Shown here: positions 31,242-34,200 of the stretch, in pieces
Numbering within the stretch: the first letter of the stretch is position 1
How the letters are laid out: each line of letters opens with the position of its first letter
NCBI GenBank assembly: GCA_965226585.1
Contig: OZ245366.1
Coordinates: 1,158,236-1,222,235 of the forward strand
Direction: 5' to 3'
From: Thermodesulfobacteriota bacterium
GTDB taxonomy: Bacteria > Desulfobacterota_D > UBA1144 > Nemesobacterales > Mycalebacteriaceae
Length of the DNA: 64,000 nt
Notes under the pieces: model-generated
What the model was told of the DNA's origin: nothing
Database searches by the model: none
Seen by the model: the letters and a program-made list of their open reading frames with translations, nothing else
Translations under genes and position numbers: made by a program

Positions 31242-34200
31242 AAAACCTGTAATTAACTCCGCCTCTGAACTGTTGCACAAAAGTATCAACCGAAGAACTC
31301 ACTCCGCCGCCATATTCAAAACTCACATTAAACTTCTCATAAGGGCTGTATTCAAAACCCGCGCCGTAGGTGAACATCACCCTGTCCATTGTGCCGTCAA
31401 CGGGAACATTATCCCTCTCAAGCCTTCCTTCAATCTCCGACTCTGGGTTAAGCACCTGTATATCCGCCCCTGTTCTTATCCACATGTTTATTGTCTCATT
31501 GAGAGGACTCCGCGCCTCTATTGACGGACTCACGTACACAAGCAACTCGCTTATCTCATCTACCCCAAAGGCATCCATCGCCGCGTCTGCCGCACCTGTT
31601 CCTGTTGTAAGCGAAGTCTCATTAAACTTATCCGCCGTTATTTGCGATGCGCCAACCGCTACGCGGGGGAAGAAAGCGAACTCTCCCATTAAGAACGGTC
31701 TTGCCGCGCCTATTTCACCGCCAAATACTGTTGCGTCCACATCCGCAGAGTAACTGTTGCCCGCCGTTCTGGTCGCTTCCCAACTCGTTGACCCATAACG
31801 CAGGTTGCCATCAAGAACAAACTCATCAACCAACGCCTCAGCGAATATACCGCCCATGAACCTTGTTGCGTCTCCGCTTGCTTTGCCCAGTCCTTTTGTG
31901 TCCGCCGCAGTCTCTGTTTCTGAACTCGCGTCTATATCCGATATCTCATATCCGCCCGCGATGGAAACAAGCACTCCGCTGAATGGCGCGGAAAAACCGC
32001 CGGTGAAGGAATAAACATCCTCGTTATATTGTATCGCCGATGTGTGCCTTGTGTATCTCCCGCCGGATGTTGCCCATACGCATCCAGTCCAGAAATCTCC
32101 GCCCACCTCATCACTCGCCGCTCCGCCGGTTCCGCATCCTCTTGCCAACTTGTCCGCAAAGTTTCTGTCTGAACGATAGGCGGACTGTATCAGCGCGTCA
32201 TATACATCCAAACTTGTGTCTTTGTGCGATGTCGCTATTAAAAACAAATTGCCGTTTTCGTCTGTCTCAACACTTACCCTTTCGCCTGTCTCCGCATTCA
32301 GGCGGTCTACAAATTCCTGCCTTTCTTCGCCTTCGGGCAGGTCATCCGCTTCAAAAATTGTGTATTCGTTTATGTGCGTTCCGGGGATATCAACCCTGAC
32401 ATTAAAGCCTTCAATATCTTCCGCGCTTATCGTACCTTCAAGGTTTATCAGCGGGTCGCCCGTCATGCTTTCAGGGTCTGCCGTGATAACAAGGGTTGAA
32501 TTTTCCCCAAAGGTTATTTTCTCCAGTCCCGCAAATCCGCCTGTGTCTTGAATTACGATTGTGCCATTGTTTATGAAACGGTCATCGCCATCGCCGAAGT
32601 TTATGGTTGCGGTTGTGTCCTCAGGGGCAGGGTCTGCAGAAGAAAGGCGGAAACGGCTGTCGCCGCTTGCTGCCCCCTCCGTCACTCCTGCCACCTCCGT
32701 CATTCCCGCCCCTTCCGTCATTCCCGCCCCCTCCGTCATTCCTGCGGAAGCAGGAATCCAGTATTGATTAGCCAGTTGAATACTGGATTCCGTGTCAGGC
32801 ACGGAATGACGGGAAGGCGAAGATTGCGCTCCCGATGAGAGAGGGAAACTCCCGGTTCCGCCTGAAGACGGCTCGTTTTCCGCATTCTCAAGCATGAAAG
32901 CGCCAACAAGGAATGTTCCCGTGCCTTCGGTCGCAACGGTGTCATCGCCTGCGCCCATATCAAGGTCGCCCGTAAGCGTGAATGTCCCGCCGTCTTTAAC
33001 GGTAATTGAGTCATTACCGGCTCCGGTTGTTCCCCAGCCCGTGAAAGTTCCCTCGTTTATAAAAGTGTCGGCGTTGTCGGAAAGTTGTATTCTGCCCGTT
33101 ATGCTGCCGGTAGGGTCGGTTGTTATCCTTGAGCCATGGGTCGGGGAATCAACACTCACGGCATAGCCAACCTCCGTGCAGACAGAACCCGAAAGTTCAC
33201 CGCCGCACACAACCGCGCCTCCTCCTACCGTCAATTCCATTAATGCCGTTCCGTTTCTGAGAGATACCGCCGAACTTGTGCCGCCGTTAGCCCACACTTT
33301 TGCGCCGTGAATGTTTGCCGCTGTTGTCGCCTTCACTGTTGAACTTCCCGAAGCGTTAGACCAGACCTGCCCCGTTCCGTCTCCTGATATGACCGTAATC
33401 CCTCCGCCGGCTTTCGCTGAAATTGCCGAACTTCCAGAAGCGTTAGACCAGACTTTTCCGTCATTTGAAACATTGACCGTTTCCGCCACTATCGTGTTGC
33501 TTGTCTTGCCTTCCCCAATTGTGTTGGCTGATGTTTCGCCTACCCACACTTTTGCACCGTCAATTTCAACCGTGCCGTTTGAGATAATCGCGGAGTCTGA
33601 GTTGAACGCCGACACATTTACGCCGCCCGATACGGTTATTGTTCGCCCGTTGATTGCCGCGAACCCGTTTTCCGTCTTGACACTTAACCCGTTGTCTTCT
33701 CCCGTGCCTCCGGTTACTGACAAGGCTCCACCCGCGCTTGACGCTTCAATGGCGACTGCGCCTCTTCCCGCCACCTTGATTGTTGAGTTGGCATCTCCGG
33801 TAACGATTACATCTCCGCTTATTGATGTTGCCAAAATGCCGATTCCGCCGTCACTGTCGGTTCCCCTTCCAATAATTACCCCTCTTGACATGGTGAGGGT
33901 AATGTCTCCTCTAACCGTGTTGGCTATAACTCCGGTTTTGCCGATTATGCAGGAAAGTCTGTTCGCAATTATTACATCTACCGTTCCGTCCTCTCCGGTT
34001 ACCGCCGCCAGACCGTAGGAATCTCCCATGGATGAGGAGAAGATTACCGCCCCGTTTATCAGCGAGGTCGTCAGGTCGCCGCTTGAACTCGTGAGAGTGG
34101 CGGATTTAGAGTCCGAGGTTGAACTCCACCTGACATCTCCGGGAATGCTTCTGTAACTGACAATTCCCGCCTCAGAACTGGTAAAAGTTAAATCAATGTT

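Follow-up and report, generated by a model that had tools for sequence, protein, structure and literature searches.

The stretch of DNA analysed here, referred to as the window, covers 64,000 nt (window position 1 is genome position 1158236, and the whole corresponds to genome 1158236-1222235) of a genome labelled as Thermodesulfobacteriota, which consists of one contig of 1.484 Mb, with a G+C content of 51.6%. The window includes AT1, a minus-strand gene belonging to an autotransporter family of 29 paralogues, which occupies 149 kb in total, or approximately 10% of the 1.48-Mb genome, and the members of which are named here by their genome coordinate and strand. A palindromic repeat with satellites lies within the AT1 coding sequence, and is read in frame as 47 residues. 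This insert is probably a dimer of CGTC-tagged hairpins which is translated within the disordered linker of a type Va autotransporter, and has been spread by recombination among the paralogues. A repeat translated in frame is a known kind of event, similar to that of the Rickettsia palindromic elements (RPEs), and represents, in the present case, an established module of 13 paralogues that is moved by gene conversion. The features concerned are the following, in window coordinates:

31240-34524, minus strand: AT1 open reading frame (ORF) as called, 1094 aa; the open frame (1172 aa) extends to about 34758
Same gene, minus strand: predicted layout of AT1, with a beta-helix passenger, disordered linker, small domain, helix, and 12-strand barrel (AlphaFold2 model; PF03797 in the paralogues)
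32675-32815, minus strand: in-frame insert of 141 nt, or 47 codons, which comprises one unit and its satellites, and encodes approximately residues 571-617 of the 1094-aa ORF
32734-32812, strand not assigned: palindromic unit of 79 nt, in which arm 1 and arm 2 lie on either side of a central 13-bp stem, giving three hairpins; nhmmer 95.1, model positions 1-79
32734-32761, plus strand (AT1 template strand): arm 1, CGTCATTCCTGCGGAAGCAGGAATCCAG; NTS-like, with CGTC tag, 8-bp stem, 4-nt loop, and CCA tail
32783-32811, minus strand (AT1 coding strand): arm 2, CGTCATTCCGTGCCTGACACGGAATCCAG; CGTC tag, 8-bp stem, 5-nt loop, and CCA tail
32675-32733, minus strand: three 18-nt satellites, each with a CGTCA(T/C)TCC head and a C-rich filler; direct-repeat family D1, spacing 18

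The ends of the insert were set by the alignment of the AT1 DNA with two paralogues that have an empty site, 1340783- and 1359842-, in which the left flank is homologous to that of AT1. Each end is ambiguous by approximately 2 nt, due to runs of G or C. The junctions read ...CAATCTTCGCC[141 nt]GGCAGCAAGCGGC... in AT1, and ...CAATCTTCACC|GGCATCAGGCGGC... in the empty-site paralogues, while the respective proteins read SSGAQSSP[47 aa]ASGDSRFRLS and SSGAQSSP|ASGGGARFSLS. This alignment shows no target-site duplication at the AT1 junctions. The minus-strand translation of the insert is free of stops (SRHSVPDTESSIQLANQYWIPASAGMTEGAGMTEGAGMTEVAGVTEG), with the satellites being translated as AGMTEG, AGMTEV, and AGVTEG. 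The GGAATGACG head is present in one to four copies among the paralogues, and each in-gene unit has 1-4 satellite heads on its right side and 1-3 on its left, in steps of 18 or 24 nt, which is the pattern that would be expected of slippage. An earlier note on this DNA had placed the repeat at 32672-32817, only 2-3 nt from the ends given here, and had described one unit with three 18-bp satellites, which add some 45 stop-free residues to a linker that AT2, AT3, and AT4 have in short form. This description is confirmed, with the boundaries and the codon number refined.

The insert is shared by a large part of the gene family. Fourteen full units are found in the coding sequence of 13 of the 29 paralogues, at the same linker site and in the same orientation, between ...PSR and ...SGDSRFRLS, and 457-509 codons before the stop, each being a stop-free insertion in frame. 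The earlier note had missed these other copies. A half unit occupies the linker site in one further gene, 1354085-, and a 26-nt remnant of arm 2 is present at this site in 27460-, in the opposite orientation (23/26 matches; score 40 vs a maximum of 26 in 500 shuffles), which stems either from a second insertion or from an in-place inversion. In this last gene (genome 27460-33027, minus strand), the remnant is read in the other open frame of the unit, as GFRVRHGETE. The other paralogues with an alignable linker have a short linker, with no element. The earlier note had cautioned that the frame of AT1 may have been kept by chance, and this is contradicted by the twelve other paralogues that hold a full unit in frame, together with the one that holds a half unit. 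Ten of the 11 readable N-termini among those element-bearing paralogues have a signal peptide, with the exception being 1258261+.

The consensus unit can be read without a stop in only two of its six frames, and every in-gene copy starts in the same one (…RHSV(P/L)DTESSIQLANQYWIPASAGMT…). The frame used in the genes is stop-free in 50 of 126 intergenic units, vs 105 of 126 for the other open frame. Few of the intergenic units are open in the frame used because an A at the first position of the loop makes a TAA, and this position is a G in 14/14 in-gene copies. The loop is one base longer in two in-gene copies, in which the frame shifts after the loop (…SSIQLGYPILDSCFRRNDG…), and is still stop-free. 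These variants are carried by 686839-690234 (+) and 1258261-1261194 (+), in which the frame of the gene is regained downstream, and the former of these genes carries two units in tandem. Among the other ORFs of the genome with 150 aa or more, none contains a unit, except for frames that merely cross repeat arrays, and the insertions across many unrelated genes that are typical of the RPEs are not observed, given that only the autotransporters and the repeat-array frames are hit.

The origin of the AT1 copy is reflected primarily in its identity with one other member of the family. The AT1 coding sequence from nt 1053 to nt 1793 is exactly identical to 445149- over 740 nt, which comprise 660 nt upstream plus the whole unit, as defined by the extension of exact matches and the donor profile:

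32732-33471, minus strand: block of 740 nt identical to 445149-, ending at the far end of the unit, where the satellites begin

The state of the element is also linked to the sequence around it. Identity in the right flank (174 nt) is 84% among the element-bearing genes vs 67% between these and the other genes, and in the left flank (186 nt) it is 70% vs 51%, with none of 2000 label permutations reaching the excess in either case. The distal barrel barely tracks the element state (67% vs 62%; this difference is reached in 74/2000 permutations). In addition, the loop variant of AT1, GATTAG, is found in six in-gene copies, and in 0/93 typed intergenic copies. Given the identity block, the linkage of the flanks, and this private loop variant, the element moves with its flanks through recombination between paralogues, and the AT1 copy is not an independent insertion from the intergenic pool. 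It is likely, on these sequence comparisons, that AT1 acquired the element from a paralogue in this way, and not by transposition. The remainder of the gene points in the same direction: AT1 nt 1890-1980 are identical to 771678+, and the sequence from nt ~2250 to the end has 88-100% identity to four element-free paralogues, which makes AT1 a mosaic of at least four donors.

The earlier note had considered the repeat family active enough to donate peptide sequence to a surface protein, which implies a fresh insertion specific to AT1 by a currently mobile family, with the frame being kept by luck. In favour of this, the repeat family is abundant, with 140 full units that vary little, the genome has two identical copies of a gene for a candidate mobilising nuclease, and an empty site is available for comparison. 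However, the copy in AT1 and the 660 nt upstream are identical to 445149-, 12 other paralogues have the element at this site in the same orientation and frame, its loop variant is restricted to in-gene copies, the element follows the flank haplotype, and the junctions lack a target-site duplication. A fresh insertion is, then, largely refuted, and very improbable. The donation of approximately 47 residues to a family of surface proteins stands, while the reading of AT1 as a record of current repeat activity does not, in view of the 740-nt identity, the restriction of GATTAG to genes, and the flank linkage.

An apparent insert could also arise if the assembly, or its polishing, had confused AT1 with its near-identical paralogues and misplaced the repeat. 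The family is highly repetitive, the contigs of a sister metagenome-assembled genome (MAG) break inside these genes, and AT1 includes short patches of 100% identity to different paralogues. On the other hand, the genome is a single contig of 1.48 Mb, none of the 13 element-bearing paralogues, including the one with two units, loses its frame across the insert, and the sister MAG, which was assembled independently, has half-unit and empty alleles at the same site. An artefact of this kind is, at most, an extremely remote prospect.

The sister MAG (GCA_051010995.1, “Thermodesulfobacteriota bacterium”) shares 95-98% identity over the 10-kb flanks, and three of its partial autotransporter genes, P0010, P0011, and P0012, reach the linker. 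The site is empty in P0011 (…TSASSTPSASGDSRFRLS), and there is a half unit in both P0010 and P0012, at loci orthologous to 771678+ and 1369873-, respectively, where the present genome has a full unit. The half-unit junction, …CCAGTATT|ACCCCGTCAGC…, is the same in the sister MAG and in 1354085- of this genome, which indicates that a single deletion allele has also circulated. The site changes its state between strains that are 2-5% apart. The earlier note had proposed a search for an empty-site allele in AT1 orthologues, and this was successful only in part: no AT1 orthologue was found, and both halves of AT1 matched only paralogues of the same genome and the three partial genes of the one sister MAG, while the empty site itself was found in 1340783-, 1359842-, and P0011. 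The autotransporter family was not found in any of the five same-genus genomes or in the same-order genomes, which thus provide no outgroup, and several of these family-free genomes hold diverged versions of the repeat, with 72-80% identity.

The structural context was obtained from an AlphaFold2 model of AT1, based on 14 family sequences (mean predicted local distance difference test, pLDDT, of 72; predicted template modelling score, pTM, of 0.58). In this model, a beta-helix covers residues ~15-540, mostly at pLDDT 80-93, followed by a linker of 94 residues (543-636), with a pLDDT of 24-28 and no secondary structure, which separates the beta-helix from the translocator. The small mixed domain (649-765), the helix (770-794), and the strands of the barrel (815-1093) complete the protein, the last residue of which is F. 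The 47 inserted residues (~571-617) form the middle of the low-confidence stretch. A low pLDDT derived from a shallow alignment is weak evidence of disorder, and the composition of the linker (S, P, G, R, T) and the variation in its length among the paralogues both agree with it. All of this supports the view of the earlier note that the site is tolerant and exposed, at the level of a structural model. The AT1 protein has no Pfam match at E <= 0.01, and its fold assignment rests, for this reason, on the model and on the paralogues, which carry PF03797. The modelled C-terminal 12-strand beta-barrel, preceded by a helix, and the beta-helical passenger are those of a type Va autotransporter.

The unit itself was characterised from a consensus and a hidden Markov model built from the same 124 copies, with which nhmmer recovered the 140 full-length units of the genome. 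The consensus is CGTCATTCCTGCGAAAGCAGGAATCCAGTATT-(6 variable nt)-CCAGTTGAATACTGGATTCCGTGTCAAGCACGGAATGACGG, and either strand of the unit folds, as single-stranded DNA (ssDNA), into three hairpins of approximately -19 kcal/mol (z = -4.7 for one strand and -6.5 for the other). Arm 1 is made up of CGTC, ATTCCTGC, GAAA, GCAGGAAT, and CCAG, and arm 2, on the opposite strand, of CGTC, ATTCCGTG, CTTGA, CACGGAAT, and CCAG, with exact copies of arm 2 being found 72 times in the genome with the CTTGA loop, and 53 times with a CCTGA loop. The window has 35 occurrences of the 13-nt core arm, vs 1.06 expected. As many as 85 of the 140 full units (61%) lie within 2 kb of an autotransporter gene, in comparison with 12.8% of random positions, a high copy number and a clustering beside surface-protein genes that are characteristic of the Neisseria Transformation Sequence (NTS) and of Ssn-related motifs (SRMs). 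A further 48 full units are more than 5 kb from any member of the family, and many of these form tandem arrays (genome 39-64 kb, 294-317 kb, and 672-682 kb).

The family-consensus arm 1 is equal to the NTS consensus, CGTCATTCCCGCGMAVGCGGGAATCYRG (Chenal et al. 2025, Nat Commun 16:2388, PMC11893778), at 26 of 28 positions, and has both the oriented CGTCAT head and the AATCYRG tail. The two differences (position 10, C>T, and position 19, G>A) involve positions that pair with each other in the stem, and thus form a compensatory pair. The published degenerate SRM pattern is HGTCWYN(0-2)YYVSBRHN(0-5)WNVSBRGN(0-2)RNCYNB (Chenal et al. 2025, PMC11893778). A change of one stem pair, from C-G to T-A, makes it miss the unit family, and when the two covarying positions are relaxed, arm 1 matches, with 89 matches in the genome vs 6-21 in random genomes. 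Similarly, the repetitive extragenic palindromes (REPs) of the CGTC-1 and CGTC-2 classes have an 8-bp stem starting with AT, a loop of 4 or 5 nt, and a CCA tail (Di Nocera et al. 2013, PMC3733652), and the consensus of the 124 units has the tag, stem, loops, and tail of these classes. In the same paper, CGTC-1 is equated with the dRS3 of Neisseria, and RPE-6 and RPE-4 with the CGTC-1 and CGTC-4 REPs (Di Nocera et al. 2013, PMC3733652). As judged by these sequence features, the unit is probably a dimer of CGTC-tagged hairpins, of the Ssn-related NTS/dRS3 type of motif, in a class that includes RPE-4 and RPE-6.

The window also contains a gene that may be related to the mobilization of these repeats:

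51139-51429, plus strand: gene for an Ssn-like protein of 96 aa with a single GIY-YIG domain, flanked by the two arms (arm 1 and arm 2) of a split unit; Pfam PF01541, E = 7.8e-16

The order in window 51098-51480 is arm 1, the 96-aa ORF, and arm 2, an arrangement in which the motif is found on both sides of an ssnA-like gene, as described for the SRMs. A second copy, 100% identical, is located at genome 1333306-1333593, and both copies lie between arm 1 and arm 2, inside repeat arrays, and beside autotransporter genes. The protein has more than 8000 relatives of approximately 96 aa, with the best 120 listed having 67-80% identity, and no match in NCBIfam or solved relative in PDB. Its size, single domain, relatives, and flanking arms make it Ssn-like, and the 79-nt unit looks like the nuclease-bearing element minus its gene. 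The predicted nuclease would presumably recognise these arms.

The sequence of events that probably accounts for these observations begins with the entry of the element into the linker of an ancestor of part of the gene family, with a second entry or an in-place inversion being possible. The element would have been tolerated there, given that the linker has no fixed structure, and that the element, in this orientation and frame, contains no stop as long as the first base of its loop is G. It would then have spread among the paralogues, together with some 180 nt of flank on each side, through homologous recombination or gene conversion, while the satellites expanded or contracted in 18-nt steps. 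The AT1 copy would derive from a recent exchange with 445149-, after which either AT1 gained two satellites or its partner lost them. The presence of the element would reflect insertion rather than deletion, and the peptide it encodes is presumably neutral.

A number of points weigh against this account. The units within genes match the model as well as those between genes do (score about 95), which fits recent conversion, and would also fit selection at the level of the DNA. The patches of 100% identity to different paralogues could be, in part, an artefact of assembly polishing. The direction of change, that is, insertion or precise deletion, is not polarised by an outgroup, as the same-genus genomes lack the gene family, and the opposite-orientation remnant in 27460- means that a single insertion followed by inheritance may not be the whole story. 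Finally, neither arm matches the degenerate SRM pattern as published, for which the genome has 7 matches, vs 2-12 in random genomes.

The remnant of 27460- also bears on the possibility that the linker sequence, or an ssDNA structure formed by it, is a preferred target, at which several paralogues acquired the element independently, by repeated site-directed insertion. This would account for the opposite-orientation arm 2 at the same site, for the existence of at least three right-hand junctions (...GGGGCAGCAAGC, ...GGGAA|ACAGCCG, and GTATT|ACCCCGTCAGC), and for the fact that, repeat-array frames apart, the unit is carried by no ORF other than those of the autotransporters. However, all 14 of the full in-gene units are in one orientation, even though the other is open more often, and the flanks co-vary with the state of the element. 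The right-hand junctions are explained by satellite slippage plus one internal deletion common to three genes, and the remnant could stem from an in-place inversion between the inverted arms of the unit itself. Independent acquisition at a preferred target is, overall, unlikely, and the exchange of a resident element between paralogues is retained as the preferred explanation.

A second set of units is associated with the stop codons of the family, and may be relevant to the exchange of the translocator. In AT1, the stop overlaps a half unit:

31210-31241, plus strand: half unit, made up of arm 1 and one half of the central stem, which adjoins the 3' end of AT1; the TAA stop (31240-31242, minus strand) overlaps it

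The junction at the AT1 stop (window 31229-31242) reads TTT TAA TACTGGATTCC, and the same TAA-TACTGGATTCC is found in 686839+, 777435+, and 830181+, and, with one change, in 1210497-. Most members of the family have a unit within ~20 nt after the stop, mostly oriented like the in-gene copy, and the conserved C-terminal module (1.4 kb, ~475 aa) is bracketed by like-oriented units, in an arrangement reminiscent of the NTS-gene-NTS organisation of Neisseria. In this genus, NTS clusters border the genes of surface proteins, and Ssn modulates the recombination of incoming DNA (Chenal et al. 2025, PMC11893778). By analogy, the in-gene doublet and the stop-codon unit might be working Ssn or recombination sites on either side of the 1.4-kb translocator module, although this is a rather doubtful proposition. 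Equally doubtful is its extension, in which Ssn cuts, or homology at the hairpins, would steer the exchange of passengers and translocators among the 29 paralogues, or with incoming DNA, as a form of programmed surface variation.

The strong mosaicism of the family is in favour of such sites, with switches of the nearest neighbour affecting 5-10 of 23 genes per boundary in a zone of approximately -150 to +300 nt around the linker, and 0-1 of 23 in the distal barrel. The unit marks the exact end of the identity block shared by AT1 and 445149-, and the stop codon of five genes falls within a half unit. By contrast, the window-by-window scan for incongruence revealed a broad zone, with no sharper peak at the unit than 150-200 nt away. 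The ends of BLAST blocks do cluster at the unit (47/86, vs 6.0 ± 2.4 expected), but they are confounded by the satellite indels, and were not counted, and the exact blocks of at least 150 nt have 3/24 ends within 30 nt of a unit, vs a null of 7.6%, a sample too small to judge. The unit was not retained as a sharp recombination breakpoint. Outside the 29 genes, there are no silent passenger cassettes of the pilS type, only repeat-encoded peptides and one 87-aa C-terminal fragment, and 16 of the paralogues manage without a full unit. A directing role of the hairpins in the exchange is, then, unsupported and unlikely. The orphan 87-aa fragment (genome 686548-686808, plus strand) lies just upstream of 686839+, is 98.9% identical to the C-terminal end of 1012476-, and looks like a relic of recombination.

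The 5' end of AT1 is interrupted at a homopolymer:

34746-34753, minus strand: run of eight C (C8) within the sequence that encodes the signal peptide; the remainder of AT1 is not in frame with the ATG at 34766-34764

From this ATG, the minus strand reads ATG TCT AAA GCC A, and then the eight C. A typical signal peptide (…LILLSLLLTLAAPPAYAQTDCG…) is encoded here, with its ATG and first codons out of frame with the 1172-codon open frame, the junction being the C8 run itself. An N-terminal Sec signal peptide in frame, as expected of a type Va protein, is thus absent from AT1, while it is present in most of the paralogues, and the earlier note was correct in describing AT1 as frameshifted. The break may be due to phase variation (an OFF state), to the recent formation of a pseudogene, or to an assembly error in the homopolymer. 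Of the 15 runs of G or C in the genome that are 8 nt or longer, three to four are found at the 5' ends of autotransporter genes, which may point to phase variation. Runs of 8-9 C are also present in the signal-peptide region of other family members, at genome 771703-771711 and 1018358-1018366.

The immediate surroundings of AT1 include a divergent paralogue of 2818 aa, which is its upstream neighbour, and two further units:

31103-31181, strand not assigned: full intergenic unit downstream of AT1 (repeat match)
34829-34907, strand not assigned: full intergenic unit upstream of AT1, before the divergent 2818-aa paralogue (repeat match)

The Rfam search of window 30500-35500 returned no match at E <= 0.1. 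A role of the in-gene unit as a terminator or promoter was considered and dropped, given that a scan with promoter and terminator consensus sequences placed nothing at the AT1 insert.

This analysis adds a census of the whole family, the exact empty site, a test of the linkage between the element and its flanks, the 740-nt donor block, a comparison of strains, and the structural context. Together, they indicate that a translated repeat can spread by hitch-hiking on tracts of gene conversion, rather than by repeated transposition, and that calls of “in-frame insertion” in multigene families need to be checked against the paralogues before they are read as mobility. Surveys that use the SRM pattern published in 2025 will undercount genomes of this type. 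The locus links three literatures, those of the NTS and Ssn of Neisseria, the CGTC-tagged REPs, and the RPEs of Rickettsia, in a small-genome lineage labelled as Thermodesulfobacteriota, which is far from where such repeats were described. If the doublets were indeed Ssn sites within genes, they would provide a natural system for the study of the effect of Ssn on the boundaries of recombination.

Mosaic families of surface proteins that diversify through gene conversion and homopolymer-tract phase variation are well known, as in the contingency loci of Neisseria. The family described here resembles them in that its 29 paralogues switch their closest partner along their length, and in that three to four have runs of 8-9 C in the signal-peptide region, and differs from them in that no silent cassettes were found here.

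The likeness to the NTS/SRM system and SsnA (Chenal et al. 2025, PMC11893778) extends from the sequence of arm 1, in which a single compensatory pair separates it from the NTS consensus (26/28), to the number of copies (more than 100, with 140 full units here), their clusters beside the genes of outer-membrane or surface proteins, and the single-domain GIY-YIG gene of ~96 aa with the motif on either side. In contrast with that system, the standard unit here is a doublet of two arms with a 13-bp central stem, and while 2% of the NTS of N. meningitidis are intragenic, here this is the case for 10% of the full units, all at one site of one family.

The CGTC-1 and CGTC-2 REPs share with the unit not only the head, the stem, the 4- or 5-nt loops, and the CCA tail, but also the formation of dimers and large clusters, and intragenic dimers that code for 20-30 residues have also been recorded among them (PMC3733652). 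The dimer is tail-to-tail within the present unit, whereas the head-to-head form is given as the common one (PMC3733652), the host is labelled as a member of the Thermodesulfobacteriota, beyond the five phyla listed in 2013 (PMC3733652), and no dedicated enzyme was found in the 2013 paper (PMC3733652). The RPEs of Rickettsia, which are compared here by description only, are found in many unrelated genes, in contrast with the one family and one site of the present unit, and its spread by recombination between paralogues. They are similar, nevertheless, in being palindromic repeats read in frame in a tolerant, and probably surface-exposed, part of a protein. The comparison with the RPEs drawn in the earlier note is an apt one, then, given that RPE-6 and RPE-4 are themselves CGTC-tagged REPs, the class into which the unit fits (PMC3733652).

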